NCBI GenBank assembly: GCA_016209525.1
Contig: JACQWK010000125.1
Coordinates: 377-64,376, forward strand
Direction: 5' to 3'
DNA: 64,000 nucleotides
Source of the DNA: Verrucomicrobiota bacterium
GTDB taxonomy: Bacteria > Verrucomicrobiota > Verrucomicrobiia > Limisphaerales > SIBE01
Part shown: piece by piece, positions 1-50,211 of the stretch
Layout: every line of letters starts with the position of its first letter
Position numbering within the stretch: position 1 is the first letter of the stretch
Notes under the pieces: generated by a model
Told to the model about the DNA's origin: nothing
Database searches by the model: none
What the model saw: only the letters and a program-made list of their open reading frames with translations
Program-made: the position numbers and the translations under genes

Positions 1-61
1 GCGAGCCCTTTTTGTATCCTGACCCCGTTGTCCCGGCTGTGGGTCAGCTTGGTCGTTCGCC

Positions 62-652
62 ATGAAGTCCTCAATGCCATTTCTGCTGGCAGCCCTACTC
101 TGTAGCGGCCTTTCCTTCAGCTTGTGGGCCGCGGAAGCTTTCTTTCCACCCAAGACTTTTGACGGCGATACCTCCCTTCAGGTGCTTGAGGGCATGTACG
201 CACATGTCCTGAAGAGTCTCGGCGAGCGTCCGCTTCCACCGCTCGCTGCTGAGAGGAAGCATCACGTTTATCGTTTCACTTGCGTGCCTAGCTTCGAGCC
301 TCAGTTCTGTCTCGTTCTCACCGTTCATCCCGACGGCTCGGCCCGACTTAAGAGATTGATCAGACGTGTCGGTTCGATGCCCCTAAGAGGCACGTGCCCG
401 CAGGGTGAGCTTGTGTTAGGGAGGCAGCCGGTGGATAGATTTGTGAAAATGGTGGAAGAGCAGCGGTTGTGGCTTCTCAAGGCGACCGAGCCAACGGAGG
501 GCCTCGACGGCTCCCACTGGCTGATTGAGGCGGTTCGGGACGGAAGGTACCACCTGGTTGAGAGGTGGAGCCCGCGATCTTCGACAGCTTTAGGGAGGAT
601 TGGGAGAGATTTCTCAGAGTTGGCTGAGTGGAAGGTGCCGGTCGTTGATTGA
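62..652 (+). CDS. hypothetical secreted protein (196 aa)
   Basis: ATG at 62. Signal-peptide-like N-terminus 'MKSSMPFLLAALLCSGLSFSLWAAEA'. Coding-like composition. No family recognised. Confidence 0.5.
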   Translation: MKSSMPFLLAALLCSGLSFSLWAAEAFFPPKTFDGDTSLQVLEGMYAHVLKSLGERPLPPLAAERKHHVYRFTCVPSFEPQFCLVLTVHPDGSARLKRLIRRVGSMPLRGTCPQGELVLGRQPVDRFVKMVEEQRLWLLKATEPTEGLDGSHWLIEAVRDGRYHLVERWSPRSSTALGRIGRDFSELAEWKVPVVD

Positions 653-1241
653 TGGCGAACCATGCGCTGGACCCAACAGCCGTGAGCGTCTCCGACTTCA
701 TGCGGTTTGATTTTACTGAGTCCTTCTCATATCGTGCCCGCGCTGTCCCGGCTGTGGGTCAGCTTGGTCGTTCGGCATCGAGAACATGAAGTCCCGTCGG
801 CAATTGATTGCGAGTCGTTGTATTCGATCCAGTTCAGATAACGGGTGCCCGTATGACAGTGGCGCTGGTTAGTTTTCCGCGTTCATCTCGGATATAATGT
901 TTAACTGGCTTTCAAAGATTCTTACGAGGCGTGAGCACAAAGATGTTGCCGCCTCTCGCCCGAGTCTTCCGCAGTCACGGTCGGAGCGTCTGCAAAGTGC
1001 ACCAGAGATCCCGAAGCTTCCGAAGAGGATCGGTCCGTTCGAATACCATCTGAAGCAAAGAAAGAACAACCCCCTTTTCCCTCATATCGCCGCGTGGCGG
1101 TGCCACTCAACCCATCATGACATCTGAACAGCCGCCAGCCGTGGCGCGAGCCCACGCGTCCGGGTTGCCGAACGTCGGATTGTCTGCCGACGTTCACCGC
1201 CGGGCGGCTGTCCGTGAGCTTGTCGTTCGCTGACGAGCGGT

Positions 1242-1790
1242 TTGATGCATACGCTTCTTACCAGAACAGTTGGAGTAGCCGTTTTGGCCATCGTCGGAGC
1301 GACCGTGGGTTGCGGCGGAGAACGCAATACTGCGGAGAGTCTGCCCCCCTCGCAACGCGGGCCGACGATTTCGGAGATCCAGAACCAGGCCACCATTGAG
1401 GATGTAAGCAAGACGGTCGCCTTCACTGTGGGCGATCCAGACACCCCTTTGGAACAACTACGGCTATCCGCGCTCTCGAGCAATCCAGCCGTGGTGGCTA
1501 CCAATAGCATCATTTTCGAGGGAGTTGGAGCCGAACGCAAGGCGCTTATTCAGCCGACGCTTTACGCGTTCGGCCGGACCACCATCACGATCAGGGTCAG
1601 CGATGGTTTAGGGGAAACGAATCGCAGTTTTCAATTCGTGGTCTCGCCGGTTACCGAGCCCCCGATCTTCAACTCCAACGCTGTTTGGCAAAAAGTGGAG
1701 TTCAGCGAACCAGACGGTGCAGCGAACCGGAGCCAGCCGACTGGCGCACAGACAAATCAAACGTCAGCGGCGGCTGGCTCCGGTCGCTGA
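1242..1790 (+). CDS. putative lipoprotein with one cadherin-like/Ig-like beta-sandwich domain
   Basis: Lipobox-like 'LAIVGATVGCGG'. The segment 'PTISEIQNQATIEDVSKTVAFTVGDPDTPLEQLRLSALSSNPAVV...TITIRVSDGLGETNRSFQFVV' has the same pattern as the N-terminal domain of the giant protein at 37155-42971. Confidence 0.6.
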   Translation: MMHTLLTRTVGVAVLAIVGATVGCGGERNTAESLPPSQRGPTISEIQNQATIEDVSKTVAFTVGDPDTPLEQLRLSALSSNPAVVATNSIIFEGVGAERKALIQPTLYAFGRTTITIRVSDGLGETNRSFQFVVSPVTEPPIFNSNAVWQKVEFSEPDGAANRSQPTGAQTNQTSAAAGSGR

Positions 1791-1844
1791 CCTCGGTCGT
1801 TCGGTGAATTGACCACGCGCACGCGGTTGGTCATGTTGTGAGCC

Positions 1845-2033
1845 GTGCAGGTTCGAGAAGTGATGGATCGATTACACCGCGAAGGCTGGAGAATTGCGCG
1901 ACAGCGGGGAAGCCACCGACAGTTCGTTCATCCTGATTACCCGGCGCGGCGTGTTACGGTTGCAGGCCACCCTCATTTGGACCTTCCCAAAGGGACGTTG
2001 AACAGTATCTTTAAGCAGGCTGGCTGGAAATAG
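1845..2033 (+). CDS. hicA: HicA-family mRNA interferase toxin
   Basis: 62 aa. 'VREVMDRLHREGW...RGSHRQFVHP...VTVAGHPHLDLPKGTLNSIFKQAG' matches the HicA/YcfA pattern. GTG start. Lies 3 nt upstream of hicB. Confidence 0.85.
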   Translation: MQVREVMDRLHREGWRIARQRGSHRQFVHPDYPARRVTVAGHPHLDLPKGTLNSIFKQAGWK

Positions 2034-2036
2034 TAT

Positions 2037-2243
2037 ATGCGATACGCAGTTGTGATTGAGAAAAGTGACACGGGTTACGGGGCTTATGTCCCTGATTTGC
2101 CGGGTTGTGTTGCTGTCGGCGAGACTGTCGAAGAGACGAGTCGATTGATTAAAGAGGCCATCGAGTTTCATCTAGAGGGCATGCGCGAGGACGGATTGGC
2201 CGCGCCCGAGCCGACTTCGGTCACCGATTACGTTGAGGTGTGA
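2037..2243 (+). CDS. hicB: HicB-family antitoxin (short form, UPF0150-like)
   Basis: 68 aa. 'YAVVIEKSDTGYGAYVPDLPGCVAVGETVEETSRLIKEAIEFHLEG' is the typical HicB N-terminal fold motif. Adjacent to hicA. Confidence 0.85.
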   Translation: MRYAVVIEKSDTGYGAYVPDLPGCVAVGETVEETSRLIKEAIEFHLEGMREDGLAAPEPTSVTDYVEV

Positions 2244-2716
2244 GTTTTTCACCGAACCAACGGGTCGAGCGAACCGCCGCTGGGTGCTTCGGTTTCGGAG
2301 TTGGCTGGAGAATTCGGAGAGTTACGGTGCTTGCGTGAGCCCGTCTCCAGCGGCGGTCGCTCACCCTTTGCCTTCTGACTATGACAATCACACGGTCCAG
2401 GGCCATTGGTCGCCGGCTGTGCAGCCGAGCCGGGCTGGCGTTTCCTAGCGCGGTGGAGAGGTCATTTCGCGCAGAGATGGCGTTGGTTCCAGCTAACATC
2501 CATGGCTTGTTTTGACTGCTGGCCTCGAGAGATTCGCGGGGCTCGGCTTCCCTCTATCGGACCCCAGAGCCCTTTCCGACCCTTTGGTCACGGCCTGTTC
2601 TCTGCTCACCCGGCGGCTCTTCCCGGTTACTTTGCCCATGTTAGGAGCCTGTTCTGAAACTCCGGGTCACGGCGTTAGGGTGATTTCGGTATTCCAGGGC
2701 GGGGCGCGGACAGCAA

Positions 2717-3388
2717 TTGACCGGATTCACACCCGGGCCCTCTGCGGCGCGTTCGCGCGTTTGGGCGCTCGGCTTGCGAAACCCGTATCGAATGGCGCTG
2801 CGTCCGGGCACGGGCAGCTTCAACCGCGCCGATGCGGAACCGGGGTCCTCTACATTGGCGATGTCGGCTGGAATACGTGGGAGGAGATCAATGTCGCGAC
2901 GCGCGGCGGAATGAACTTTGGGTGGCCGTCGTTCGAAGGGATGATGCCGTGGAGATCAGTGGACTTGGGTGAGCCTCGAACCTGCGCCTGATTCCGGAAA
3001 GGTGGCGCACCAATTTGCGATTGCCGCCGAGTTGCACTACCACTACTTCACGGGCGCCGCAACCCCGCTTGAGGTCCTTCCGGGCGACAGTCTGGTGACG
3101 TTCGTTCTTCTCGACCCCGCGAACCTTCCTCAGGAAGTGATGCCGCAATGGTATGATGGCAATTCATGGGCACACGCCGCGTACTGGGGCGCGAACCTGA
3201 TCGCACGGGGCGCGAATGACACCGTGAGCCGCCGGTCCATGGGGGCGTTGCCGTCCGCAGGCCAATGGACCAAATTGGAAGTGCCGGCTGGCTTGGTTGG
3301 ATTGGACGGCCGAAGCGTCTCCGGAATGAACTTCGTCTTGTATGGCGGCCGAGCGATTTGGGACAGCAGCGGCAAATCCAGTCCGTAG
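2717..3388 (+). pseudogene. remnant of a PQQ-dependent sugar (glucose/sorbosone) dehydrogenase-like gene, 5'-truncated and frameshifted
   Basis: Frame 2 reads 'RVWALGLRNPYRMALRPGTGSFNRADAEPG'. Frame 1 then reads 'VLYIGDVGWNTWEEINVATRGGMNFGWPSFEG'. The reading returns to frame 2 for a 139-aa C-terminal domain (2969-3388). The roughly 250 aa normally found before the GLRNP motif are absent. Confidence 0.5.
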
Positions 3389-3553
3389 CGGCGGGCGTCC
3401 GCGCCTGCCGCAGTGGGTGGCATTCTGCTGCCCGGAACCAGGGTTCGACCCACTCGCTCACGCCGAGACTTTCGACGGCTTTGGAAGAGCCGCAGCTTCG
3501 CTCCGCCGGGCGAGACGCCCGGCTTTACGGCAGGCGAGGACGCCCGCCGCTAC
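3385..3553. repeat. 169-bp hairpin-rich element bounded by perfect 16-bp inverted repeats (MITE/REP-like)
   Basis: 'gtagcggcgggcgtcc' at 3385-3400 and its exact reverse complement 'ggacgcccgccgctac' at 3538-3553. It fills the gap between two convergent gene ends. Confidence 0.6.
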
Positions 3554-3566
3554 CTAAAAGGCAGGT

Positions 3567-4937
3567 TCAATCTTGCGCCAGCTCTTGCCACAAATGGGCG
3601 CTCATGGCCATGCCTTTGGCGAACACTTCGAGGTCAAACTTCTCGTTGGGTGAGTGCGCGTTGTCATCGGGCAAAGCGAGACCGAGCATCAGGCTATCGG
3701 CGTTAAGGATTTTCTTGAAGGCGTTGACGATGGGAATCGAGCCGCCTTCCCGCATGAGAACGGGTTCGCGGCCGAAGGCCTTCTTCAAGGCTCGCAAACC
3801 CGCTTGCGCGCCGCGGCTCTGAGGTGCGATGACGTAAGGTTCTCCGCCATGTTCGGCCCTGAATTCAAGGCCCACGGTCGGGGGACAGATCTTGCGGATG
3901 CGCCGGACAAACAGTTCCCGCACGCGCTCCGGCTTTTGGTTTGGAACCAGCCGCATGGTGATCTTCGCGCTTGCCCACGCCGGAATGATCGTCTTGCTGC
4001 CTTCGCCCTGATACCCGCTGGTCAAGCCGTTGATTTCGAGAGTCGGCCGCGCGCAGCGCTGTTCCACGGGGCTAAAGCCGCGCTCGCCCAGCAGCTTGGG
4101 GACTCCCAAAAACTTGCGGTAGGCGCGCTCCTGAAACGGCAGCCGGGCCAGTTGTTTGCGTTCAAACGAGGTCAGCGGTTCCACGTCGTCATAAAAACCA
4201 GGGACCGCGACGCGCCCCTTCTTGTCCCTCAATTGCGCGAGCAGTTGGCACAGAACCATCGCGGGATTATCCACTGTTCCACCAAAAATGCCCGAGTGCA
4301 GATCGCGCGACGGACCCGTGAGCTTCAGTTCCAGGGCTGCGATCCCCCTCAAGCCGTAGGTCAATGTCGGATGTTTCTTGCTCACGAGTCCCGTGTCGGA
4401 AATGACGATCCCATCGCAACGCAGGCGCGAGCGCTTGTCTCTCAGGAAATCCGACAGATGTTTGCTGCCGACTTCCTCTTCGCCTTCGATCACAAAGGTC
4501 AAGTCGCAAGGAAGTTCGGACCCGGTTTTCAAATACGCTTCGACGGCATTGAGATGGGCCAGGTGCTGTCCCTTGTTGTCGCTTGCGCCCCGGCCAAACA
4601 ATGAATTTCCTTGGACGCGGGGTTCAAAAGGCGGCGATCTCCAGAGATCGAAGGGCTCTGGGGGCTGAACGTCGTAGTGCCCGTAAATGAGATGGTGCGG
4701 CTTGCGGGAGGAGTTGCGCCTTGGGGTCGATGCCAGAACGATAGGATTGCCCGCCGTCGGCTGAAGTTCGGCCTGCAGTCCGATCTTTTGGCAGTGCTGA
4801 AACAGCCAGCGCGCGCATGCTTCCAAATCTTTTCGGTGCACGGGTTGCGCAGAGACGCTTGGGAAACGGACGTAATCACAAAGCTCGCGGATGAAGCGGG
4901 CTTTGTTGTCTTTAAGGTAATTCAAGATGTTCTGCAT
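3567..4937 (-). CDS. M20-family metallopeptidase (dipeptidase, ArgE/DapE/CPG2-like)
   Basis: 456 aa. Motifs 'IYGHYDVQPPEP' and 'LFGRGASDNKGQ'. Starts 3 nt after the upstream AsmA-like gene stop. Confidence 0.85.
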   Translation of the reverse strand: MQNILNYLKDNKARFIRELCDYVRFPSVSAQPVHRKDLEACARWLFQHCQKIGLQAELQPTAGNPIVLASTPRRNSSRKPHHLIYGHYDVQPPEPFDLWRSPPFEPRVQGNSLFGRGASDNKGQHLAHLNAVEAYLKTGSELPCDLTFVIEGEEEVGSKHLSDFLRDKRSRLRCDGIVISDTGLVSKKHPTLTYGLRGIAALELKLTGPSRDLHSGIFGGTVDNPAMVLCQLLAQLRDKKGRVAVPGFYDDVEPLTSFERKQLARLPFQERAYRKFLGVPKLLGERGFSPVEQRCARPTLEINGLTSGYQGEGSKTIIPAWASAKITMRLVPNQKPERVRELFVRRIRKICPPTVGLEFRAEHGGEPYVIAPQSRGAQAGLRALKKAFGREPVLMREGGSIPIVNAFKKILNADSLMLGLALPDDNAHSPNEKFDLEVFAKGMAMSAHLWQELAQD

Positions 4938-4940
4938 TTT

Positions 4941-7900
4941 TCATTTCTTTTTTCGCGGAAGCAAATCGAGCAAATCGAGCGGGCTCACGCGCGGCGGTTT
5001 GTTGGCGGGCGATGCTGGAATAATGTTTGTGCCCGGCGGGAGATTCGTTCCCAGTGGTGGACGTTGTCCGCCCAACAGCTCACCCAATCCTTGCAGAAGG
5101 TTTCCCGTCTTTTCGCCGACCTTGGGAAGGCTGCCAGCCGTTTGCAGAAGCACCCCGGAGATGACGAGCTTGTCAATCTCGGTTTTGGGGTCGCCCAAGG
5201 TTCCCGCCAACTTCGCAAAGGTCGGCAATTGGACATACGCGGCGTTCGTGGGCGTGCCGGCCCCAACCAAGCGGGCCTTTTCCGCGAGAGAGCGGCGCAG
5301 CGCGAGGGCCACGGGGATATCCAGAGGAGAATTCGTCAAGTCCGGCGCGATCCGAATCGTGCCTTGACCCTGGGCGAAAAAGGCCGGACTGAAGACCGAA
5401 AACTGGCTGAGGTTGATTTTCCCCTGGCCTAAATCCGCTTTTGCGCTGACCCATTCCAACGGCGTGAGCGTCAACTCGGGCACGCGCAAAACGAGGGCGA
5501 TCGGGTCCAGCAATGCTTTGGTTTTTTTGCCGACGATTTCGAGGTTCAAGTTTGTGAGGTTAAGCGAAATCTGGCCGCTCAAGTTTCTTTGCAGACTGGC
5601 GCCAGTCACTCCCGCGCCTCGAAGTTGGGCATCAGCCAAAAGAACGCCCCGAATCGAGCCGGACGATTGAGTTCCGAAACCGCTGGCCAGAGGATCAAGC
5701 GGCACTCGATCGGCCTTGAGCGCCACATCATATTTGTAGCCAGGAACGCTCAGATCCAAGATGGCGCTGCCGCTCACGGGCGCGCCATTGAGCGCGAATT
5801 GCAACGGTTTGAGCGCGACCTCGCTTCGGTTGAGCTTGGCCGTTGCTTGCAGATTCGTCAGCGCCACATCGCGGAGGAAGCAGCGATTGACCTTGAGTTC
5901 AGCGGTCAATTGTTGGATGGGCAACGTGACCGGTGCGGGTTCACTCTCTCGGGGAACGGCCGACTGAGCGCCTGTCTGAATCCGTGGGGCAGAAATCTTG
6001 GCTGCCGGTTCGAGCGGCATCTTGCCGCTTGAACCACGGGGCAAGGATGCCCCTTGAACCGGCAGGCTGAAAGCCTGCCTCACGGCTCGCGGCTTTGCCC
6101 CCGTCGGATTCGTGCTCGTGGTTCCGGCGAACAGCTCGTAATAAGGCGTCAGGTCCAGCGAGTCCGCTTGGAGCGTGAGTTGGCTGGGTCCTGCGTTGGT
6201 CGGACTCAAGTCCAGCCGGCCCTGCAACAGCAATTGGTTCTGGGCGCGATCCGTGGGAGACAACTTGAGCGCGAACTGCCGCAGTTCGACGGTTTGCGCG
6301 CGCACCGAGCTGTCCAACTGCATTTCCGCGCTCAGCGGCGCCCGCGGCAGTTTCCTTTGGGGATCTTCGACGACTAGATTCGCGACTTTCAACTCGGCTT
6401 TCACAGCCGAGTCTCCTTTCGCATTGAAACTGGCCGAGCCATTGCCGCTGAGGGCGGCGGAGGCCAGGCGATTTTCACCGAGAGACGGTTGGAGCAGGAG
6501 GCCGAGAACTGTTTGGTCGAAATCTGAGATCGTGAAGGAACCTGACCCCGCGTAGTTGGTGAGATTGAACTTGCCCTGCACATCCGCGTGTCCGGCGCTC
6601 TTGACGCCCTGGCGTATGTCGAGAACCAACTGCCGGACGTCGATTTCCGGATGCCGGAAGGAACCTTGGACTTGCAGCCGCGCGTCGAATGGCACCTGCG
6701 GAAATCGATTCTCCGGACCGGCCATCACGAGATTGTCCAGTTTGATTTCGCCTTTCACCGACGACTCGCCGTTGGGACTGTGGCTTGCCTCGCCCTGAGC
6801 GTTCAGCAAAACCGTCACCAACCTGGTGTTACCCAGGAATGCGCCCAGGAACGGCGCCATCAGCGTCTGATTGAATTGCGAGATACTGAAGGTTGCCTGC
6901 CCGGCCATGTTCGTGAGGTTGTGGCGGCCGGAGATTTGCAGGCTGCCGCAAGGTTGTCCGCCCTGGCCGAAGTTCGCGACCGCGCGTTGGATTTGAACCG
7001 TATTCTGCGCGAGATCAAGGTCGTAGTCCACAGACGTCCGAAAATCTTTGAACGCATATTCGCTGTAGCTTCCGGAGAAGCCGTCCAATTCGAGTTGCCC
7101 CGACGCGGTGCGACGTTCGCCGCTCTGACTGATCGTGGCGCTGCTCTTGATGCGTCCACTCGATACACTTAATCCAGCCACTGGGAACGGCTTGAGAACC
7201 TCCGGCAAGGAGGCCTCAGAATCCGACTTCAGCTTGAGTTCCCCTTTCGAGAGATCAAGCTGGGCCGAGCCGCGGCTGCTGGCGGCCATTTGATTCTTAA
7301 GGAGCAGTTCGAACCGATAGGCGTCGAGATCAACCATTTTCAGGTCGGTCATTCGACCGCTCAGTTCGAATCGGGCTTGCGCTTGTTCGATTTGGTTAGT
7401 GCCAACGCGCGCGGCCAAGTCCTGAATGCTGCCAGTGAGTTTCGTCGCGAGTTTCTTACCGTTCTGCTGGGCTTGGACGCTCATTTGGAGATCGACACGT
7501 CCGCCCGGCGCATTGGTTCCGATGAGCGATTGCCAGGCGGGGATCGAAAAATCCTTCAGGGAGAGCTGCAGGGTGGAGTCGGGAATGCTTGCTTGAGCGG
7601 CGCCCCAATTGAGCGCCATCGGACGGTCCAGGCTCACTTGGAGAAGGTCCTTTTGGCTTTCTTTTCCTGTCAGGCTGAGCTTCTCGACCACGGCGGTTTT
7701 TTGATCCAGGTTGACTTGGGCTTGATACGCCAAGGTCAAATCCAGGGGCGGAGTCGCTCCGCTGCGCTGGCGAACGCCGACTCGGCTTCCGGTCATATTC
7801 CCGTTCGCCGCGATGACCGAGCCGTTCTGCGTGACCTCGACGTTGCCCGACGCGTTCAAGATCGAGTCGCCAAAATCCCACCCGTGCGCTGCCCCAAAAA

Positions 7901-8873
7901 GATTCAAGACCTGCCGATCGATGGATTGCACTTCGACTTTCAGGCGAGTTTCCCGCTTTTCGAGGTTGAAGGGGCCGCTGGCCTGGAGGTTGCCCAGACT
8001 TTTTCCGGCGCGCTCAAAATGAAGCGAGAATTGCCGGATCTCAGCAGGCGAAGCGTCGGCCAGAAGAGTTCCACCCAAGCCTGCTGCGTCCTTGAAAGCC
8101 CCGTCGGCTTGCGCGAGATTGAAACGAAGGGAGCCTTTGACCGAGGCCGGCGTCAACTGCGGATCCAAGCCCAACTCGAAGTCTCCGCTCAATTTCGCTT
8201 GGGCACGATCCGTCCCGCCATCCTTGGCGTTCCCAGGCGTCTGCTCGAATTTCAAATCGGCCGACACCTTGGCCGTACCGTGGCCGCCATTCCGCAATTG
8301 ATCGAGCGCCAGGGTCATATTCTCCGCTGCGATCACCTGGGTGGCGCCATCTTTCTGTTTGGTGATCATGCGGAGGTTGGCATTCTTGAGGCTTAGATTT
8401 CTCGCGTCCAACCGGATCGGCTCGACGGACTCGGCGGTTCGGCCAGGCTGGGAAAGCTCCCTCTTGAGCAGAGGATCCAAATTGCTCGTTCCGTCAGCCT
8501 CCGTCACGATGTGAACTTGCGGCCCGACCAGCGAGACTTCTTGCAACTTCAAATCACCGCGCAGGATTGCGAAAAGATCGTATCGGATGTTGGCCTCGTC
8601 CGCGGTCAAAAGCGGTTCTGTGCCTCGAGTGTGAACTCTTACGTTTTGCAGAATGACCTGAGAAAACGGACTGAGGGAAAGATTGGCCACGGTGAGGTCT
8701 GCGCCAAGCGCCTTCCCCACGCGAGGCAGAACGAAGGATTTGACGAATGCAGAACTCGTTGCGACGAAGTATAAGACCACGATCAGAAAGGCCAGGCTGC
8801 CCGCGACAACGGCCAACTTCCGGAGCCAAGAGGATCGCTTGTGGCCCGCGTTGGATTTTGCGACTTCTGTCAT
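4941..8873 (-). CDS. AsmA/TamB-like giant envelope protein (N-terminal membrane anchor)
   Basis: 1310 aa. N-terminal TM 'LAVVAGSLAFLIVVLYFVA', followed by long repetitive beta-rich sequence typical of the AsmA family (DUF748/AsmA_2-like). Confidence 0.7.
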   Translation of the reverse strand: MTEVAKSNAGHKRSSWLRKLAVVAGSLAFLIVVLYFVATSSAFVKSFVLPRVGKALGADLTVANLSLSPFSQVILQNVRVHTRGTEPLLTADEANIRYDLFAILRGDLKLQEVSLVGPQVHIVTEADGTSNLDPLLKRELSQPGRTAESVEPIRLDARNLSLKNANLRMITKQKDGATQVIAAENMTLALDQLRNGGHGTAKVSADLKFEQTPGNAKDGGTDRAQAKLSGDFELGLDPQLTPASVKGSLRFNLAQADGAFKDAAGLGGTLLADASPAEIRQFSLHFERAGKSLGNLQASGPFNLEKRETRLKVEVQSIDRQVLNLFGAAHGWDFGDSILNASGNVEVTQNGSVIAANGNMTGSRVGVRQRSGATPPLDLTLAYQAQVNLDQKTAVVEKLSLTGKESQKDLLQVSLDRPMALNWGAAQASIPDSTLQLSLKDFSIPAWQSLIGTNAPGGRVDLQMSVQAQQNGKKLATKLTGSIQDLAARVGTNQIEQAQARFELSGRMTDLKMVDLDAYRFELLLKNQMAASSRGSAQLDLSKGELKLKSDSEASLPEVLKPFPVAGLSVSSGRIKSSATISQSGERRTASGQLELDGFSGSYSEYAFKDFRTSVDYDLDLAQNTVQIQRAVANFGQGGQPCGSLQISGRHNLTNMAGQATFSISQFNQTLMAPFLGAFLGNTRLVTVLLNAQGEASHSPNGESSVKGEIKLDNLVMAGPENRFPQVPFDARLQVQGSFRHPEIDVRQLVLDIRQGVKSAGHADVQGKFNLTNYAGSGSFTISDFDQTVLGLLLQPSLGENRLASAALSGNGSASFNAKGDSAVKAELKVANLVVEDPQRKLPRAPLSAEMQLDSSVRAQTVELRQFALKLSPTDRAQNQLLLQGRLDLSPTNAGPSQLTLQADSLDLTPYYELFAGTTSTNPTGAKPRAVRQAFSLPVQGASLPRGSSGKMPLEPAAKISAPRIQTGAQSAVPRESEPAPVTLPIQQLTAELKVNRCFLRDVALTNLQATAKLNRSEVALKPLQFALNGAPVSGSAILDLSVPGYKYDVALKADRVPLDPLASGFGTQSSGSIRGVLLADAQLRGAGVTGASLQRNLSGQISLNLTNLNLEIVGKKTKALLDPIALVLRVPELTLTPLEWVSAKADLGQGKINLSQFSVFSPAFFAQGQGTIRIAPDLTNSPLDIPVALALRRSLAEKARLVGAGTPTNAAYVQLPTFAKLAGTLGDPKTEIDKLVISGVLLQTAGSLPKVGEKTGNLLQGLGELLGGQRPPLGTNLPPGTNIIPASPANKPPRVSPLDLLDLLPRKKK
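5988..6083 (-). repeat. 96-nt four-hairpin repeat embedded in frame in the AsmA-like CDS
   Basis: The reverse complement matches 48102-48197 at 84 of 96 positions by my manual alignment, with no indels. It encodes 'VRQAFSLPVQGASLPRGSSGKMPLEPAAKISA'. Confidence 0.75.
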
Positions 8874-8951
8874 ATCAAGAGTTCAAAAGTAAACGTGCGC
8901 CTCTCACCCGGCCTTCCGCCTTCGCCAGGCCTATGGCGGACAAGTCTGCCA

Positions 8952-8993
8952 CCCTCTCCCCGCATCCGATGAGGCGAGAGGGCAGGGAGAGGG
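8952..8993. repeat. 'ccctctccc...gggagaggg' hairpin repeat (family A)
   Basis: Inverted arms at 8952-8960 and 8985-8993. The same stem motif recurs at 10999-11025, about 16382-16470, 19622-19728 and 49921-50046. Confidence 0.5.
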
Positions 8994-9059
8994 GCTTCAT
9001 CTCGAGTCATTTGTGAATTGTTTGGAAACATCGAACCAAAAACGATGGATGGCAGCTTG

Positions 9060-9992
9060 TCAGCCTGTTTTCCGTCCTTCCAGGATCGCCACGTAATCCG
9101 CGATACCTGCCGCCGGCGAGTATTCCGGAGTAAACTTTAATTCATTTTTCGCCAAAGTCATGTCGGCCTCGGTGTGCGGCTGGTAAAAGCTGTAAGGATT
9201 CTCGAAGTATTCGGGCTCCAACCGCGTTCCCAGGTTCTTATTCAGCTCGGTGATGACTTCGTTAAACGAGAACGCCTGGCCAGTACCGCAGTTGTAAAAG
9301 GTGCTCTCCGGCGCCCCCAGCGCTTGGATCGTCATGCGCGCGGCATCTTTGACATAGACGAAATCGCGCTTTTGCTCGCCCGTGCGGAAGACCCTCGGCC
9401 GCCGCCCCGCCTTCATTTGCAGGTAAAGCTGGTAAATCATGCTGGCCGCCGCTTTCTTGTGCGCTTCGTGTGGACCGAAAACGTTGAAGTAGCGGACGCC
9501 GACAATCCTCCAGGACGCGTGGTTCCGGCAGTAGATCCGGGCCAAGTTGTCCAACTGGACCTTGGAAAACGCATAGACATTTGCAGGTGCCGGAGGTTGG
9601 TCCTCCTTCATACGGGCTGAGGCGATCCCGTAGGTCGCGGCGGACGAGGCATAGACCACAGGGGTATGGGTCGCCGACGCAAACTCGAGCAAGCGACGGA
9701 AGCCTTCGACGTTGTCATGCACCTGGAGAAACTGGTCATGGATGGTGGTATCGGTGATGGACGCTTCGTGGAAGATGGCGTCGAAGACGTCGTCCTTGAA
9801 CTGGGCTTGCCAATCGAGACGTGAGATATCGCCCGCCACGATATCGCCCCGGTAACCTTGCAGGTTCGCAAAGCTGCCGGATCGAAAATCATCCGTGACG
9901 ACCAACCTCGCGTCCGGATACTTCGCCTGCAAGGCCAGGGCCAGATTCGACCCAATAAATCCAGCGCCACCCGTGATCAAAATGTTTCGCAC
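9060..9992 (-). CDS. hldD: ADP-L-glycero-D-manno-heptose 6-epimerase-like NAD-dependent epimerase
   Basis: 310 aa. Motifs 'ILITGGAGFIGSN', 'YASSAATYG', 'RYFNVFGPHEAHKKAAASM', 'KRDFVYVKD' and 'YNCGTGQAFSFNEV' are collinear with HldD/RfaD. GTG start. Confidence 0.75.
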   Translation of the reverse strand: MRNILITGGAGFIGSNLALALQAKYPDARLVVTDDFRSGSFANLQGYRGDIVAGDISRLDWQAQFKDDVFDAIFHEASITDTTIHDQFLQVHDNVEGFRRLLEFASATHTPVVYASSAATYGIASARMKEDQPPAPANVYAFSKVQLDNLARIYCRNHASWRIVGVRYFNVFGPHEAHKKAAASMIYQLYLQMKAGRRPRVFRTGEQKRDFVYVKDAARMTIQALGAPESTFYNCGTGQAFSFNEVITELNKNLGTRLEPEYFENPYSFYQPHTEADMTLAKNELKFTPEYSPAAGIADYVAILEGRKTG

Positions 9993-10287
9993 GGCGAGAG
10001 ACTATGGCTTTTGTCCGGTTCGTCACTAAAAAATCGCCCACTCCAAGCGCTTCGCGACAGTCTGGCTCATTCGCATTCCGGACGGAACGAAATCCGATTC
10101 GGAGGCGGTTCCGGCTGTGTCTCGTCGGTCGAGGAGGCTACACACGTCAACAACGCGCGTTCAACTTGCCGGATGGCTTCCAAGTGTTCCTCCGACTTCT
10201 CCCCGGCATCGGAAACGGTTCTCAAGATTTCGATCAAACTGACTGCATATTTGATCTTAAGTTCCGTGATCCGCCTTGTATGCACAA

Positions 10288-10302
10288 TGCATATCATATG
10301 CA
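10288..10302. promoter_or_regulatory. perfect 15-bp palindrome, candidate operator in a divergent promoter region
   Basis: 'tgcatatcatatgca', flanked by further ATGCA repeats ('tatgcacaatgcatatcatatgcaatatgcacacagaatgca'). Lies between hldD (-) and the XRE gene (+). Confidence 0.3.
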
Positions 10303-10998: not shown

Positions 10999-11025
10999 CC
11001 CTCTCCCCATCCGATGGGGAGAGGG
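10999..11025. repeat. perfect hairpin repeat (family A)
   Basis: 'ccctctcccca tccga tggggagaggg', with an 11-bp perfect stem. Confidence 0.6.
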
Positions 11026-11118
11026 TGGCCGAAGGCTGGGTGGGAAGTGTATGCTTGCTTTTGAACTCATTAATCAGTCGCGGCTCAGTTTCTCATAGCT
11101 TTGGAGCGAAACCGACCG

Positions 11119-12030: not shown

Positions 12031-12135
12031 CATGAACCAAGGATTGACCCGGATCGCGGGCGGCTCGCCCGCACTTTCGGACGAGGTTGAGAGACTTGCG
12101 GGCGAGCCGCCTGCGCTCCGATCAGGCGGTTCATG
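12031..12135. repeat. about 105-bp REP-like element
   Basis: Terminal 'catgaacc' / 'ggttcatg', plus two internal copies of the palindromic unit 'gcgggcggctcgcccgc' / 'gcgggcgagccgcc'. Confidence 0.5.
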
Positions 12136-17634: not shown

Positions 17635-17775
17635 GAGCGTGTTTTGAAAATGGGTGGAACGGGCTACCAGCCCGTTGCCGGCGGCAACCTGCCGCCGAAA
17701 ATGGCGGCAGGCTGGTAGCCTGCCGTAACAGGCCAGTGGCCTGTTCCACCCGAAAGGCATTTTCAAAACACGCTC
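17635..17775. repeat. 141-bp MITE-like element with about 26-bp terminal inverted repeats and nested hairpins
   Basis: Left arm 'gagcgtgttttgaaaatgggtggaac'. Right arm 'gttccaccc(gaaaggc)attttcaaaacacgctc'. Internal hairpins include 'ggcggcaacctgccgcc', 'ggcaggctggtagcctgcc' and 'acaggccagtggcctgt'. Confidence 0.7.
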
Positions 17776-17806
17776 TAAATGGCCCTAACGGAAAAATGCG
17801 ATATTT

Positions 17807-19414: not shown

Positions 19415-19434
19415 TCGTAAGTATCCAAACGGAA

Positions 19435-19582
19435 ATGGGGAGCACACGCGCCTTCGCGTGTTCCGATCGGCGCCTCGCCGGTCGGAATGAGGGAGCGATT
19501 CACGCTTCCAACGATGACCTCTTTCTAAACTCGAGAGTGGCCGGCGGGGGCGCCGACCGCGGCAAGCGCGTGTGCTCCCCAT
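19435..19582. repeat. 148-bp MITE-like element with perfect 17-bp terminal inverted repeats
   Basis: 'atggggagcacacgcgc' at 19435-19451 and 'gcgcgtgtgctccccat' at 19566-19582. Confidence 0.7.
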
Positions 19583-19621
19583 CTGAACAGAATGCTTCCG
19601 CAGGGCTGCATCAAGCTCTCC

Positions 19622-27137: not shown

Positions 27138-30100
27138 TCGGGAGGCAGGAGAATCGCACGTAAGAACGCCTGACCGGCGAGTTCTTGCACCGTCAAGGGG
27201 ACGGTCTGCGGGCTATTGGTCAGTGTCAGCGTACGCAGCGTCCGCCACGGTTCGGCCAACTCCAGCGAGTGCCGAATCTCGATTGCGTATTTCCAATCCA
27301 GAGCGCCCAAAAGCTCCAAGCTCTGCGCGGGGTTGAAACGCAAAATGGGCGGCCAGCCGTAACTCGCTCGGTAGGCCTGATCCTGTCCTGCGACCAAGTT
27401 AATCGTCGTGGTTTTTGGTGTCTGGTAGCCAGGCACTGGTTTGAACTCCAGGCTGTAGTCCACGCCAGTGGGCAGAATCCGGCTGGCTTGCACGGCATTC
27501 GTGAATTCCATCGACGGGATTTCTTTGAGATGCCAGGCAGCGCCAGCGGTTACCGCGGCAGCAGGTTCCAGTGTCACGCTTAGCGTCTGGAAGCCAAACG
27601 TGGCGGCACCAACAATCGGTGAATTGAAGACAAATACTCCGCCGCCCGTGAAGTTAGTTCCCAAATCGGCCGATGAGGCCGCCCGGTTGATCAGATCGGC
27701 GACCCGGCTGTCAATCGCACGAACCGTGGATCGTCCGTCGTGGGAACCGAGATAAACGGCCGCGGGGAAATACGTGCGATTGGTTGCGGGGAACGGGAGC
27801 ACGAAGAGCGGGCCTCCGCTGTTGCCCGGAAAACTGAGGAAATCCGCTGTTGAATAAAGGCATCCCCCTTCAGGAACAAAACCGTAGTTGCGAGCCTCCG
27901 TCTCAAACATACGTCCGTCAGCTTCGCCCGTGAGAGGATAACCTGCGAGGAACTTCTCTCCGGAGACGCCCTCTGGTCCCAACAACCATTCGTTTATCTC
28001 CGCATCAGATAATAAGAAGCCGCTTTCACCGTCGCGTGCCACGGGCTGGTCAAAATAAATCGCGGCGATATCCCATTGTTGTGAGGCTCGTGAGGAAACG
28101 CCAGGTTTCAACCCTTGTTCCCGCTCCTTCCGGCGCTCGATCAGATACTGGTCCATCACATACCATCCGAGCCCCCTCATTGGCCGGGATTCATAGTCAC
28201 CAGCGTGCCGTTCGTGGAACCACTCGACCGATGTCACGAAGTTCGTAGTCGAATCGTCAAAAAGAACGTGTGTTGCGGTGAGCACGACCTTCTTCCGAAC
28301 GGCAATGCCGCTTCCCCAGCCGAGAGGTGTTCGAAGCTGGCCAACCAACGGCAACGGACGCTTAAGCGTGGTCCTGGTCGCGAGCGCATCCTCAATCTCG
28401 GCGTAGCTGAGTACAGGCCGTGCGGTGCGCCTCCCTGGAGGAGGTGCAGGCTCATAATCCACACGGACGATATTGTCCACACCGGAAACGAGCGTGACCA
28501 GCCGAGCAGGTGGAGTCAGCCAGTCTCTCACCGGGCGACATTCGATAATGTTGGTGGCACCCGCTGGCAGTCCGGTCCACGGGTACCCACTGGGCAGATA
28601 GCCCAGCTCGCCTCGGAGCCGCCAACCTGCGTCCAACCTGTGCACCTCTGGGGGCTCAATCATGACGATCAGGGAGCCGCTATCCCGCGCCAGCCTACTG
28701 GCGTAGCGCGCGATGCGGCCTGTCACCTCTTTATTTAGGACCGGAATAATCGCAGCAGGTGGTTCGTCAAATCCGGCAATAGGGCGAAATTGAATCGCAT
28801 AATTCCCGACGTCGAGATTGCCGAGAGTCTGGCCGCTGGAATGCCACACCAGCTCCCACGGCAACCTCCAGCCCCCGCGTTCTGCTGCCGGAGCCTCGAT
28901 AGTCACCCTCAATGCGCCGCTTGCGGTGCGTGCATTCGGCGGCACGAGCCTCATGAACGATGTCGGCATCGCCGGCACTTCGTCGTCCGTGATGGAGACC
29001 GTGGCGATGCTTGGCGCGCCCAGCATCGCGCCGTTTGAAGGAGAACTAAGTGAAATCGTCAGTTCTCTGGTGCGATCAAGCACAAAGTTATCAAGCAGCC
29101 TGATTCGAATCTCCTTAGTGTCTTCGTTTCTGGCAAAATCCAAGCGGCCCGGCTCCAGGAGATAATCACGCCCGGGAACGGCAGTTCGGTCGCTCACAGC
29201 ATAACTCACACTGGCAACCGAGTTGCCGGTTCTCAGCACCGGGATTTTGAGCACACCCGCACTCTCGTTGGTTTGAAAGGAATCCTGACTGAAGCGAACA
29301 ATAACTGGATCGTTCACCTCCAGCTTCGCATCGGTGCTCGCGGCTGATCCGACCAGATTGCTTACAACTACACCATAGGTGCCACTCTCTGGTTTCTGCA
29401 CCTTCTTCAGCACGAGTGTCGAATTTGTCGCTCCGATGATGTCAACTCGGTCCCTTCGCCACTGATAGCTCAAAGGCAGCGTGCCGGTAGCCGCTACCGA
29501 GAAGGTAACATCCGAGTCCACCAGGACAGTTTGGCTTTGAGGCTGGACGGTAATTGAAACTGGAACCGCGTAATCTCCCAAGAGGCTGATGACATACGGA
29601 GATTGCGCCCAGTCGTTCGGCGTCTGCGCACCGATGCCGTAAAGCCGACCGTCGAGCTCCACAACGGAACTAAATCCGTGGGCCATTTGGAACGGGCTCT
29701 CTATCTTTCCTTCCGATGCTGGAAACATGCGGATCACTCCATTCCAGAGAGAGAGGAAGTAAGCCCGGCCTGTTTGAGAAAAGTAGTCCGAGCGGCCCGC
29801 GACGCCTTTTGATCCCCGCGGGTCAACGAAAGGAAGAGTCCAGTCCACGCCGTTGGTTGTGCTCCAAAGGCCCAACGACACCACGACCCGATCTGGAATC
29901 ATGACGGATGAAGCGTACAGATAGTCCTGCGTTGGTACAAAACCTTGGAGGGCGAATGGCTGAAAACCTCGAACCAAGCTCCAATTGATTCCATCGACCG
30001 TTCTAAAAAGCTCGGATGATCTGGAGATTTCCTCACTAGTCGCAACGTACAAATGCCCCTTCCACTCGGTCATCGCGACAATTAGTTTGTTTGGGCCACC

Positions 30101-32104
30101 GGAATCGATAGCTGTGTTGAACCGAAATTGGTACCCGTCTGAGGATTCATAAATTCTGCCGGCGCTGGTGCCGAAATACATCTTTCCGTTGAACTGAGCC
30201 ATAGCACGCACGTAGTTGCTGGGATTAAACGGCGTTGCTCTGACCGGTGTGAAGATGGTGCCATCATACTTCCAAATAACGCCGTCCGAATGGGACACAA
30301 ACAACTGACCTCCCATGGACGAGAGCGCCAAGAATTGCCCTGCTAGCTCAGTTAGCCCCGGGACATTGTTTGTCGTCGTTGGGTCGAAGCTATAGACTTT
30401 GGCGGGTCTTTCGCTTCCATCGCTGGAGATGGAATAGAAAATCCGGCCTGCATAAGCTTGCGCCAATGAAGTGCGGCCTTCTGCGGCGTGAATGCCGTTT
30501 CCTGTCACTAATACCGTGTCATAACGACTGGGATCAAAGGTCCCAAGGAGCTTCGACACCACGTTCAGCATTAGGGTGGCGTTGGAACTGGTCACACCGC
30601 CTGCCGCGTTGCTCACGAGCACGCTGTAGCTGCCAGCATCGCTCGATTGGACGTTGTCGAAGGTTAGGGTTTCGTTCGTGGCACCTTCGATACGAGCAAC
30701 GTTTTTCCGCCACTCGTAAATGAGCGGAGGAGAACCTGTCGCTTTGACAGTGAATGTGACGGTTGTACCCATAGTCACCATCTGGCTCTGAGGTTGGCTT
30801 ATGATCGTCGGTCCAATTACAGGAATGCCCTTTCGAATCGTGTTGTTACCGGTATCCGCAACATAGAGATTTCCAATGCTGTCCACTGCAACACCGTACG
30901 GCCGATTGAACCGCGCTGCATTTCCTGTCCCATCAGCGCTGCCGATTTCCCCCGCCCAACCTGCCACGGTGCTTACCTCGCCTCGTGGTGTGATCATCCG
31001 GATTGTATGGTTGAGAAGATCCGCCACATATAAGTTGCCCGTAGTGTCAACTGCTAGCCCCCACGGGGAATTGAACCGGGTCGCACTTCCAGTGCCGTCC
31101 ACGGGGCCAGATACGCCTTCCAGCCCTGCCAGTGTCCCGACCACTCCAACCGGCGTGATTCGTCGGATCGTATGGTTCGCATTATCCCCGACATAAACGT
31201 TCCCTTGGCTGTCCACCACCACACCACCTGGAAGGAAGAATCGTGCCTCACTCCCTGTCCCGTCCGAAAAACCTTGAACTGATCCTGCCAACGTGCTCAC
31301 AACTCCGTCGGGCGTGAGTTTGCGAATCCGGTTGTTGTTCAAATCGGCCACGAATACGTTTCCCGCACCATCCAGTGACACATCGCTCGGTAAATCGAAC
31401 CGTGCGGCGATTCCCGGTCCGTCAGTAATACCGTTAACTCCCGCTGAACCAGCCAGTGTGCTCACGGCTCCGCCCAGCGTGATTTTCCGAATTGTGTGAT
31501 TCCCCCCATCGGCGACATACACATTTCCTGCGCCATCCGCGGCCACGCCCGACGGGGAACGAAATCGCGCCACGCTCCCTGGACCATCCACACTGCCAGG
31601 GTTGCCCGCCAAGCCGGCCACCGTACTCACTACTCCGCCCGACGTGATCATACGAATTGTGTGGTTGAAGAGATCCGCGACATATACATTTCCACCACTG
31701 TCCACAGCCACGCCATCCGGTTTGTCGAACCGCGCCAGGGTCCCTATCCCGTCCGCACTGCCGGGCTGCCCCGCAACTCCTGCGAAAGTGGAGAATCTGT
31801 AAACGGTATCGGCTAAAGTCTGGAATGGTGAGTGGATCGCACCGATCACAAGCCAGACCCAGGACATCGTAAAGCACAGTCGTCGCGTCATTCGGTAGCT
31901 CATCACTCTCGACCGCTCGTAGGCTTGGTGAACACCCGAAGGGGTCGAGTGAATTTCATCTGCTCGCCACTGGTTGTGCTTTAAGCAATCGGGGCGCGTT
32001 CGCCTCGCTCCCTGACATTCGCGTAGTCCGGTCGCTGCCTGGAAGGCGCGCGAGTGTATCGCTCGGCTGTCACGTGCATTCCGGTTAGTTGCGAAAGTCT
32101 TCAT
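27134..32104 (-). CDS. giant secreted protein P1: NHL-repeat propeller, Ig I-set, second propeller-like region, Ig I-set, then the shared C-terminal module (Calx-beta, two beta-sandwich repeats, trypsin-like serine protease, beta-sandwich, C-terminal domain)
   Basis: NHL repeats ('NHTIRMIT..G.VSTVAG..G..GS.DG.G..ARF..P.GVA.D..GN.YVAD'). I-set domains ('QPQSQ.V..G..VTF.V.A.G..PL.Y.WR'). Calx-beta ('VRFSQDSFQTNESAGVLKIPVLRTG...VSYAV...GRDY'). Catalytic triad context 'LTATHVLF', 'QWDIAAIYF' and 'FPGNSGGPLFV'. The true start is probably M68 at 31903, which precedes a signal peptide ('MSYRMTRRLCFTMSWVWLVIGAI'). Confidence 0.85.
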   Translation of the reverse strand: MKTFATNRNARDSRAIHSRAFQAATGLRECQGARRTRPDCLKHNQWRADEIHSTPSGVHQAYERSRVMSYRMTRRLCFTMSWVWLVIGAIHSPFQTLADTVYRFSTFAGVAGQPGSADGIGTLARFDKPDGVAVDSGGNVYVADLFNHTIRMITSGGVVSTVAGLAGNPGSVDGPGSVARFRSPSGVAADGAGNVYVADGGNHTIRKITLGGAVSTLAGSAGVNGITDGPGIAARFDLPSDVSLDGAGNVFVADLNNNRIRKLTPDGVVSTLAGSVQGFSDGTGSEARFFLPGGVVVDSQGNVYVGDNANHTIRRITPVGVVGTLAGLEGVSGPVDGTGSATRFNSPWGLAVDTTGNLYVADLLNHTIRMITPRGEVSTVAGWAGEIGSADGTGNAARFNRPYGVAVDSIGNLYVADTGNNTIRKGIPVIGPTIISQPQSQMVTMGTTVTFTVKATGSPPLIYEWRKNVARIEGATNETLTFDNVQSSDAGSYSVLVSNAAGGVTSSNATLMLNVVSKLLGTFDPSRYDTVLVTGNGIHAAEGRTSLAQAYAGRIFYSISSDGSERPAKVYSFDPTTTNNVPGLTELAGQFLALSSMGGQLFVSHSDGVIWKYDGTIFTPVRATPFNPSNYVRAMAQFNGKMYFGTSAGRIYESSDGYQFRFNTAIDSGGPNKLIVAMTEWKGHLYVATSEEISRSSELFRTVDGINWSLVRGFQPFALQGFVPTQDYLYASSVMIPDRVVVSLGLWSTTNGVDWTLPFVDPRGSKGVAGRSDYFSQTGRAYFLSLWNGVIRMFPASEGKIESPFQMAHGFSSVVELDGRLYGIGAQTPNDWAQSPYVISLLGDYAVPVSITVQPQSQTVLVDSDVTFSVAATGTLPLSYQWRRDRVDIIGATNSTLVLKKVQKPESGTYGVVVSNLVGSAASTDAKLEVNDPVIVRFSQDSFQTNESAGVLKIPVLRTGNSVASVSYAVSDRTAVPGRDYLLEPGRLDFARNEDTKEIRIRLLDNFVLDRTRELTISLSSPSNGAMLGAPSIATVSITDDEVPAMPTSFMRLVPPNARTASGALRVTIEAPAAERGGWRLPWELVWHSSGQTLGNLDVGNYAIQFRPIAGFDEPPAAIIPVLNKEVTGRIARYASRLARDSGSLIVMIEPPEVHRLDAGWRLRGELGYLPSGYPWTGLPAGATNIIECRPVRDWLTPPARLVTLVSGVDNIVRVDYEPAPPPGRRTARPVLSYAEIEDALATRTTLKRPLPLVGQLRTPLGWGSGIAVRKKVVLTATHVLFDDSTTNFVTSVEWFHERHAGDYESRPMRGLGWYVMDQYLIERRKEREQGLKPGVSSRASQQWDIAAIYFDQPVARDGESGFLLSDAEINEWLLGPEGVSGEKFLAGYPLTGEADGRMFETEARNYGFVPEGGCLYSTADFLSFPGNSGGPLFVLPFPATNRTYFPAAVYLGSHDGRSTVRAIDSRVADLINRAASSADLGTNFTGGGVFVFNSPIVGAATFGFQTLSVTLEPAAAVTAGAAWHLKEIPSMEFTNAVQASRILPTGVDYSLEFKPVPGYQTPKTTTINLVAGQDQAYRASYGWPPILRFNPAQSLELLGALDWKYAIEIRHSLELAEPWRTLRTLTLTNSPQTVPLTVQELAGQAFLRAILLPPE

Positions 32105-32151
32105 CTCATGTTCTCTCTCATCTGGTGCCGGACTAGGCCGTCAGCGGCGAC

Positions 32152-44120: not shown

Positions 44121-44135
44121 GCAACCCCGCGGGGC

Positions 44136-44167
44136 CAGGGTGGGGCGCGCGCGCGCGCCCCACCCTG
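44136..44167. repeat. perfect 32-bp GC-rich palindrome
   Basis: 'cagggtggggcgcgcgcgcgcgccccaccctg', flanked by 'ccccgcgggg' and 'ccccgccgggg'. Confidence 0.85.
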
Positions 44168-44345
44168 ACCCCGCCGGGGACCCCTCTTGTTTCACACCGC
44201 GTCCGGACATGCAAGCTGGCCATGCCAGCTCCGTCGGCCCTCGCTCCGCAGCGTTTCCGGGAAGAACCTTCCCTTCTATCCGCAGGAGGTTCGGACTCCT
44301 GCCTTGGCTGTTTCGCATTCCTGCCGTCTTTTCAGTGTGTCAGGC

Positions 44346-46370: not shown

Positions 46371-46381
46371 GAGCCGTTTGT

Positions 46382-46431
46382 AGTCCCGGCTTTAGCCGGC
46401 TTTCTCGTGCCAGCCGGCTAAAGCCGGGACT
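46382..46431. repeat. perfect 20-bp inverted repeat with a 10-nt loop (REP/terminator-like)
   Basis: 'agtcccggctttagccggct' at 46382-46401 and 'agccggctaaagccgggact' at 46412-46431. A related 'gggactgaagccgggactacaagcggg' motif occurs near 10383-10410. Confidence 0.8.
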
Positions 46432-46514
46432 CCGTACGCCCCGAGTGAGAATTGCTGGATCCGGCTTGGAGTTAGGATTCGGCAGAATCGGCCTCAGCGT
46501 CCGCAAGCACTGTT

Positions 46515-50046: not shown

Positions 50047-50074
50047 AATTCACCGACCTAAGCTCATGCTTTGT

Positions 50075-50140: not shown

Positions 50141-50211
50141 AGGGGAAACAGCGCGTTCGAACTTCCACGACGCAGCCACTGGAAGTAGCGAAGAACCAAA
50201 CGAGAACTATT

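Follow-up and report, generated by a model that had tools for sequence, protein, structure and literature searches.

A probable MITE-type palindromic element lying in frame within unrelated protein-coding genes of Verrucomicrobiota

We analyzed a palindromic repeat that occurs twice, in frame and in unrelated genes, on a 64,000-nt stretch of DNA from a bacterium of the phylum Verrucomicrobiota (assembly GCA_016209525.1, contig JACQWK010000125.1, positions 377 to 64,376), hereafter the window. A segment of 96 nt flagged within an AsmA-family gene is, very probably, the core that has stayed conserved in an old copy of a non-autonomous transposable element. The element belongs, on this reading, to a family of the MITE type (miniature inverted-repeat transposable elements) of Verrucomicrobiota that is tolerated in frame in protein loops and linkers. 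The evidence comes from the comparison of the two window copies with each other and with orthologous genes, from the anatomy and flanks of intact copies found elsewhere, and from the dispersal of the family across unrelated proteins and contigs.

Copies of the element in the AsmA and GH92 genes

Alignment with MAFFT of the reverse complement of 5988-6083 with 48102-48197 gave 84 identical positions in 96 ungapped columns, the same figure that the initial annotation had obtained by manual count. The similarity survives proper alignment and indeed reaches further, since a repeat finder extended the pair to 104 nt (5981-6084 versus 48101-48204; 88%, 91/104), with unrelated sequence on either side. 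A 24-nt core was found twice in the window against an expectation of 0.00 from shuffles. The first host gene (4941-8873, minus strand) is intact and encodes a 1310-aa protein with Pfam domains DUF748 and AsmA, while the second (46515-49838, plus strand), also intact, encodes a 1107-aa protein of the alpha-mannosidase family with CBM-like, GH92N and GH92 domains. Open reading frame (ORF) positions and Pfam assignments bore out the claim that the two copies share orientation and reading phase relative to genes that are unrelated. The four hairpins that had been described are present, both strands of the copies folding well above shuffled controls (z -5.3 to -6.7), and the encoded peptides are Ser/Pro/Gly-rich in both hosts, as previously quoted.

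Whether the segment represents an insertion or ancestral sequence was settled by orthologue alignments. It is missing from all 31 aligned AsmA-family orthologues and from all 38 aligned GH92 orthologues (79-42% identity), the latter belonging to Verrucomicrobiota/Limisphaerales, with a best identity of 79%; the window GH92 protein carries a net 37 extra residues. Because every orthologue examined lacks the segment, both segments are, by these alignments, lineage-specific insertions. Codon comparison with the DNA of the closest relatives (locus L019 for AsmA and L020 for GH92) delimited inserts of 42 codons (5966-6091) and 37 codons (48093-48203). The 'exactly 32 codons' of the initial annotation must consequently be read as the well-conserved core and not as the insert. 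Downstream of the insert both host ORFs remain conserved, and in other respects they have their full length; the genes therefore do not look like pseudogenes.

The two inserts are decayed to different extents. The AsmA copy (5966-6091, minus strand) sustained a 9-nt deletion in its left terminus and kept its right terminus (…TTCAGACAGGCGCTC); it scored 113.3 bits against a covariance model built from seven copies, spanning model positions 1-135 with a 9-nt gap. The GH92 copy (48093-48203, plus strand; aa 527-563) has a left terminus that is still recognisable (GTGTCTGCCAACGT versus the consensus GTGTCTGAAAACGT) and a right terminus that is eroded or deleted, leaving it a net 24 nt short of 135; its model match (48085-48219) scored 110.1 bits. 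Given the eroded termini and the in-frame deletions (-9 nt, -24 nt), the genic copies of the window are probably immobile fossils. Four derived bases are common to both and found in none of the eight other copies, and the pair therefore belongs to a subfamily specific to this lineage.

A direct repeat of 9-10 nt surrounds the GH92 copy, its left member TCTGCCAAC (48093-48101) directly preceding the element core and its right member TCTGCCCAAC (48207-48216) lying shortly past it. It was rejected as a target-site duplication, since the left member fits the element's own terminus GTGTCTGAAAACGT better (12/14). The likeness of that member to downstream host sequence might reflect loss of the right terminus by a deletion between short stretches of microhomology.

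In both hosts the insert occupies a permissive site. In the AsmA protein, the orthologue alignment places it in a variable linker rich in Pro and Ala, between the conserved segments SLDLTPYYxLFAG and EPxPVxLPxQQLTAxLK, and the length of this linker varies already among orthologues. The GH92 insert lies in a loop of the N-terminal beta-sandwich domain. An AlphaFold2 model of the GH92 protein (predicted local distance difference test, pLDDT, 83.7; predicted template modelling score, pTM, 0.88) matched solved structures of GH92 mannosidases with target-normalised TM scores of 0.85-0.90. Mapping the insert onto this model, as had been envisaged in the initial annotation, revealed a disordered coil without secondary structure between two beta-strands of the N-terminal domain (residues 529-562, pLDDT below 50). 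The element has persisted in both hosts at places where an extra floppy loop probably does little harm. The family offers a concrete system for the study of how bacterial proteins gain loops and of how much palindromic DNA a coding sequence bears.

The sense frame used is free of stops and encodes a Ser/Pro/Gly/Ala-rich peptide (…SENVGQASSLPVxGASxPRVSGGxMPPEPADKMSAPHFQTGS), these four residues making up 52% of the consensus. This frame is open in 10/10 copies, most of which were found via that very peptide. Three of the six consensus frames are open, the other two encoding RACLKTWGRLPACRFAGHPCPVFQAARCRPNRQTRCLPHIFRRA and SPSENVGQTSCLPVRAASCRLKHGARMPREPAGWKPAPRFQTRS, which rules out the existence of an 'only open frame' as the cause of the shared phase. 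The phase shared by the two window copies has a chance probability of about 1 in 3 and is not statistically remarkable. Variable columns of the 96-nt core are spread over codon positions 1, 2 and 3 as 11, 11 and 13, and 32% of codon pairs with a single difference are synonymous against 27% expected under random mutation. Since substitutions show no bias toward any codon position and synonymous changes are about as frequent as chance predicts, conservation appears to operate on the palindromic DNA, with no detectable purifying selection on the peptide.

Anatomy and dispersal of the element family

The 96-nt element of the initial annotation is a real repeat, but intact copies establish a larger unit, of which the two genic copies of the window are eroded remains. 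The five copies with both termini intact measure exactly 132 nt each, from GAGC to GCTC, and contain no transposase ORF. Their consensus (134 nt, AGAGCG to CGCTCT) is self-complementary at 98 of 134 positions (73%). Four GC-rich hairpins are enclosed by a terminal inverted repeat that is about 26 nt long (GAGCGTGTCTGAAAAYGTGGGGCAG …) and starts with GAG; the consensus ends AGAGCGTGTCTGAAAACGTGGGGCAG and CTGCCCCACATTTTCAGACGGGCTCT are complementary to each other, and the ends of the element read GAGCGTGTCTGAAAA. The outer stem is 74% paired across the 10 copies, with seven pairs altered on both sides. When four hairpins and outer stem were modelled together over these copies, 84.4% of cells formed standard pairs versus 35-41% in slid controls. 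Twelve pairs were changed on both sides, a count reached in 6 of 500 shuffles, and compensatory changes occur in hairpins 1-3.

The triplets that flank the five intact copies are TAA/TAA, TGA/TGA, TGA/TAA, TGA/GGA and GGA/TCA; a further copy, cut by a contig end (L018b), has TAA on its left side, the only one preserved. When the intergenic sibling described below is included, 10 of 13 flank triplets have the form T-N-A, in direct and not inverted arrangement, against a background of 3.9% (P about 2e-12). Two of six flank pairs are identical (TAA/TAA and TGA/TGA; P=0.0035) and three more differ at one base. This pattern suggests a 3-bp target-site duplication. If such a duplication is true, each insertion adds 132 + 3 = 135 nt and therefore exactly 45 codons.

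The window also harbors an intact intergenic sibling of 141 nt (17636-17776), situated between an ORF ending at 17482 and an ORF starting at 17807. The covariance model matched it at 17644-17767 with 50.9 bits (E 2e-10). Its termini are those of the family (GAGCGTGTTTTGAAAAT … ATTTTCAAAACACGCTC) and, as there, an outer stem encloses four hairpins; the interior has diverged, and the flanks read TAT and TAA. This near-perfect palindrome folds as DNA with -61.2 kcal/mol (z -11.6). Like termini around unlike interiors are the usual pattern of MITE families that share one transposase. The likeness to intergenic REP/MITE elements that the initial annotation had drawn is accordingly upheld in that an intact intergenic relative exists, but the anatomy is that of a MITE and not that of a repetitive extragenic palindrome (REP).

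We searched 1.84 billion representative proteins with an index-free profile of the 34-aa peptide and recovered 36 matches at E<=1e-3, one of them the AsmA protein of the window itself (P0121), and 14 at E<=1e-10; the weakest few of the 36 cover part of the peptide only. The consensus peptide of these matches is longer than the window peptides (SLSENVGQASSLPVHGASSPRVSGGRMPPEPADKMSAPHFQTGSK). Hosts with recognisable domains are unrelated to each other and comprise AsmA/DUF748, GH92, GDSL lipase with DUF7133 (two copies), VWA/YfbK_C, FG-GAP/UnbV_ASPIC and Glyoxalase-fold proteins and a DUF6057 membrane protein. In the Glyoxalase-fold host the domain is stretched over 182 residues for 121 model positions. 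The family is well defined, occurs in at least seven unrelated protein families, and resides in an under-studied and mostly uncultured phylum. Many other matches are ORFs of 60-160 aa without any domain, probably gene calls over intergenic copies. For annotation, this means that many short 'hypothetical proteins' with the peptide in metagenome catalogues are probably spurious, and that host proteins bearing an insert may be mis-aligned.

At the DNA level, eight further copies were retrieved from seven unrelated contigs of metagenomes and metagenome-assembled genomes (ENA, JGI, NCBI), with core identities of 80-90% to the window copies. In total there are 10 copies on eight contigs, plus the window sibling. 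Carriers of the family include assembly GCA_027452545.1, the metagenome-assembled genome that encodes MBI4661796 and MBI4658257, and JGI Ga0562382_00016. Intergenic copies include the window sibling and, on other Verrucomicrobiota contigs, a copy at locus L017 and two at L018. Those of L018 stand in opposite orientation, about 460 nt apart, upstream of a nonribosomal peptide synthetase gene, and that of L017 lies in a gene-poor gap beside a serine recombinase gene. The L017 region (JGI Ga0562382_00016, 1-10300 of a 1.1-Mb contig) also carries, near the element, a TrwB/DUF87 ATPase gene and a nucleotide-modification block (HMUDK_hel, thymidylate synthase, thymidylate kinase, TylF methyltransferase), a neighborhood that resembles a mobile element that has integrated, or what is left of a prophage.

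Some of the proteins carry variants of the peptide. In P0150 (259 aa) and P0139 (1124 aa), tandem arrays (4 and 16 units, respectively) match the peptide in its initial part only (VGQASGLPVKGAS…; …SLSVSGCSTPTGRKM…). These arrays probably translate other DNA repeats, tandem or palindromic, that have the first hairpins in common with the element. P0147 and P0149 display the variant VGQASSLPVRAASLPPK.SAGRMPAEPAAKMAALR, which points to one more related subfamily whose middle hairpins are altered.

Two other kinds of search concern the extent of the family. A word-indexed search of a protein database of 5.8e9 clusters returned no match and is uninformative, since P0001 and P0121 are contained there and were nevertheless missed. 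This search overlooked a 45-aa query present verbatim in two database proteins, and short low-complexity queries may thus yield false negatives. Scans of genome and metagenome contigs used the 20-mer GCCCCGTGGTTCANGCGGCA, common to both window copies. They gave chance matches of 20-22 nt only, and because the probe carries a G specific to the window copies (consensus column 67), they are silent on the wider family.

Proposed origin and alternative explanations

A non-autonomous DNA transposon moved in trans by a DDE transposase fits the element because of its fixed length, its long terminal inverted repeat, its GAG ends and its T-N-A flanks. By the mechanism we propose, insertion with a 3-bp target-site duplication would never shift the downstream frame. 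Copies landing in protein loops or linkers in an open phase would be tolerated and would persist as additional disordered loops. The constraint would act on the DNA, that is, on the palindrome and its termini, and not on the peptide. Mobilisation would be carried out in trans by a DDE transposase, possibly of the IS1031 type of the IS5 family.

Several results weigh against this origin. No autonomous element with matching termini was found in about 230 kb of DNA, where the terminus motif occurs on the elements alone. The L014 transposase (DDE_Tnp_1_4/DDE_Tnp_1, 484 aa), the one such gene seen near a copy, was ruled out as belonging to the parent insertion sequence, not being bounded by element termini. 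The case for a 3-bp duplication is drawn entirely from flanks in which two of six pairs agree, and the genic copies of the window are too eroded at their termini to display one. Statistics of frame and orientation are biased, most copies having been found through the translated peptide. Furthermore, the 43.7 kb around the orthologues in the closest AsmA and GH92 relatives contain no copy, and none was detected in viral contigs with exact consensus probes or in annotated plasmids and phages with blastn. The distribution of the family is patchy.

Three other accounts of the hairpins and of the coding fit must be weighed against a transposon moved in trans. The element could be of the REP or REPIN (REP doublet forming hairpins) type, that is, one of the clustered extragenic palindromes spread by a REP-associated tyrosine transposase (RAYT) of the HUH class, and not a MITE with terminal inverted repeats and target-site duplication. 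The GC-rich hairpins with conserved stems and the inverted pair of copies about 460 nt apart at L018 agree with such an origin, and REPs are on record for the Verrucomicrobia, in Opitutus terrae (PMC3733652). REPs are however single palindromes of 20-40 bp with a GTAG or CGTC tag at one end (PMC3733652), whereas the present unit is fixed at 132 nt, ends in terminal inverted repeats of 26 nt and has T-N-A triplets on its flanks, and neither tag stands at the hairpin ends of the consensus (GTGGGGCAG, CGGGGCA, GGCGGCA, GGCAGAC). Judged from this consensus, the element falls outside the definition of a REP in both size and end tag. In addition, Pfam gene listings of the fetched loci include no RAYT gene, although the window ORFs were not scanned systematically for one. 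We consider an origin of this type improbable.

Even less credible is the view that a structured RNA, either a small RNA or a cis-acting mRNA element, explains the hairpins and makes the fit to the coding frame secondary. The very stable folds (z -5 to -11), the compensatory changes in hairpins 1-3 and the necessary presence of the sense-oriented element in two mRNAs speak for it. However, the two strands fold about equally, as a DNA palindrome would, intergenic copies occur in either orientation, and the terminal inverted repeat and flank triplets have no RNA rationale. No Rfam 15 family was matched at gathering thresholds anywhere in the window, the permissive matches (E<=1) being generic hairpins far below cut-off. 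The least probable of the accounts is that of a protein module under selection, either a linker or a motif, which recombination would have spread and in which the palindromy of the DNA would be incidental. All domain-bearing hosts seen use one and the same frame, and that frame is open in every copy, as a module would demand, but the family-finding search covered this frame only. Moreover, a module does not agree with the flat distribution of substitutions over codon positions and the near-random synonymous share, with 80-90% DNA identity among copies in unrelated genes of different organisms, with the existence of intergenic copies, or with a peptide that is predicted to be disordered.

We thus favor the transposon moved in trans. 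An extension of it, which we regard as possible but doubtful, holds that the family is built for frame-neutral insertion and has repeatedly, across the phylum, supplied the proteins of Verrucomicrobiota with new surface loops and linkers, with a preference in orientation and phase that exceeds what stop codons impose. Three of the four possible modes of insertion into an ORF at TAA or TGA are open. A preference beyond stop codons, if true, would imply targeted insertion or selection on the encoded peptide.

Relation to known systems and other repeats in the window

The Correia elements (NEMIS) of Neisseria measure 100-155 bp, have terminal inverted repeats of about 26 bp and produce a short AT-containing (TA) duplication. 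They are co-transcribed with genes and fold into long hairpins; for the most part they lie between genes and are regulatory, and an in-frame position inside ORFs is not characteristic of them. In contrast, the element described here lies in frame within ORFs and has T-N-A flanks instead of a TA duplication. Ends of IS1031-type insertion sequences start with GAG in the ISfinder tables, and this correspondence serves as a lead, not as a test. Within the IS5 family, the IS1031 group is reported to prefer TNA targets and to generate a 3-bp duplication (PMC1676026), and the eukaryotic PIF/Harbinger-Tourist MITEs, which are related to it, generate TWA duplications (PMC4482050). The T-N-A pattern of our flanks resembles both, a link drawn from flanks and termini only.

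MITEs are about 50-500 bp in size and have no coding capacity of their own, and the 132-nt copies fall within these bounds; they likewise have terminal inverted repeats and occur in multiple dispersed copies. Intragenic MITEs are known from bacteria and include QMITE1 of Coxiella, MITEb/e of Anabaena, the enterobacterial RU-1/ERIC and the pneumococcal BOX (PMC10969869, PMC5896051, PMC2759123); Coxiella QMITE2 has direct repeats of 7-9 bp (same review as QMITE1, PMC10969869). Like the intragenic MITEs, our element is small and non-coding, has terminal inverted repeats and a strong secondary structure, is flanked by apparent direct repeats and is sometimes fused in frame with host ORFs. It differs from them in sequence, host phylum and type of flank, in the 45 codons made up by element plus putative duplication, and in an interior of nested palindromes with four hairpins.

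The closest parallel is with the Rickettsia palindromic elements (RPEs; Ogata et al. 2000, 2002). These are described as palindromic repeats of about 100-150 bp that lie in frame in many unrelated and apparently functional genes, add a conserved extra peptide in each family and also have intergenic copies (PMC10969869, PMC3733652). The likeness embraces a palindrome of RPE-like size in frame in unrelated ORFs, the conserved peptide and the intergenic copies, so that the parallel suggested in the initial annotation, with in-frame insertion in another lineage, is well supported. By comparison, the present hosts are free-living or environmental Verrucomicrobiota and not an obligate intracellular alphaproteobacterium, and a long terminal inverted repeat with T-N-A flanks is clear, which makes a transposase-type mechanism proposable. 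Since the orthologues of its genes identify the host as a member of the Verrucomicrobiota, we draw only an analogy: the element would work like an RPE, and membership in families RPE-1 to RPE-10 is not claimed.

In-frame insertion of palindromes or MITEs is already known as a phenomenon; the element family and the phylum are new. We found no account in the literature consulted of this family or of in-frame MITEs in Verrucomicrobia, only of GTAG REPs in Opitutus terrae (PMC3733652). The best-documented cases of in-frame selfish DNA are those of Rickettsia, and a 2024 review considered its presence in further prokaryotes conceivable but unexplored (PMC10969869).

The window is rich in other repeats. 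Further GC-rich intergenic palindromes are found at 3385-3553, 12050-12120, 19432-19584, 44125-44178, 46375-46438, 50074-50141 and 60413-60490. One of them, with arms of 34+34 nt that are 97% complementary without spacer, lies about 240 nt past the GH92 stop, and another hairpin stands just 5' of the GH92 start. Their weak scores against the element model (14-32 bits) probably reflect mere long-hairpin shape. A hairpin motif, CCCTCTCCCC…GGGGAGAGGG (repeat family D17), recurs at three intergenic sites (8954-8982, 10999-11027 and 50016-50044). A stretch of 2.1 kb immediately upstream of the AsmA gene is enclosed by 42-nt inverted repeats (8879-8920 and 11027-11068; 79% complementary, starting with GAGTTCAAAAG). 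These repeats were ruled out as ends of an insertion sequence, since they enclose an NAD-dependent epimerase-like gene and a helix-turn-helix gene and no transposase; they probably represent a different intergenic repeat, present here in two inverted copies.

A match of 56 nt (86% identical) joins 49746-49801 and 60232-60287, at the 3' ends of two unrelated genes, GH92 and a WbsX-like one (58986-60269), and encodes a C-terminal tail common to both proteins (…EIVKGGRLE.ELGP.PN). It could be the product of gene conversion or a shared small module. A second GH92 paralogue in the window, sought as an internal control, proved to be none, the match at 60232-60287 being the end of the WbsX-like gene. 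Finally, large direct repeats recur about every 5.0 kb over 27600-42000 (e.g., 29008/33996/39023 and 27605/32611/37620), together with 165-nt tandem units at 30908-31756 and repeats spaced 1077 nt at 39895-41732, and this region looks like several paralogous, internally repetitive giant genes.

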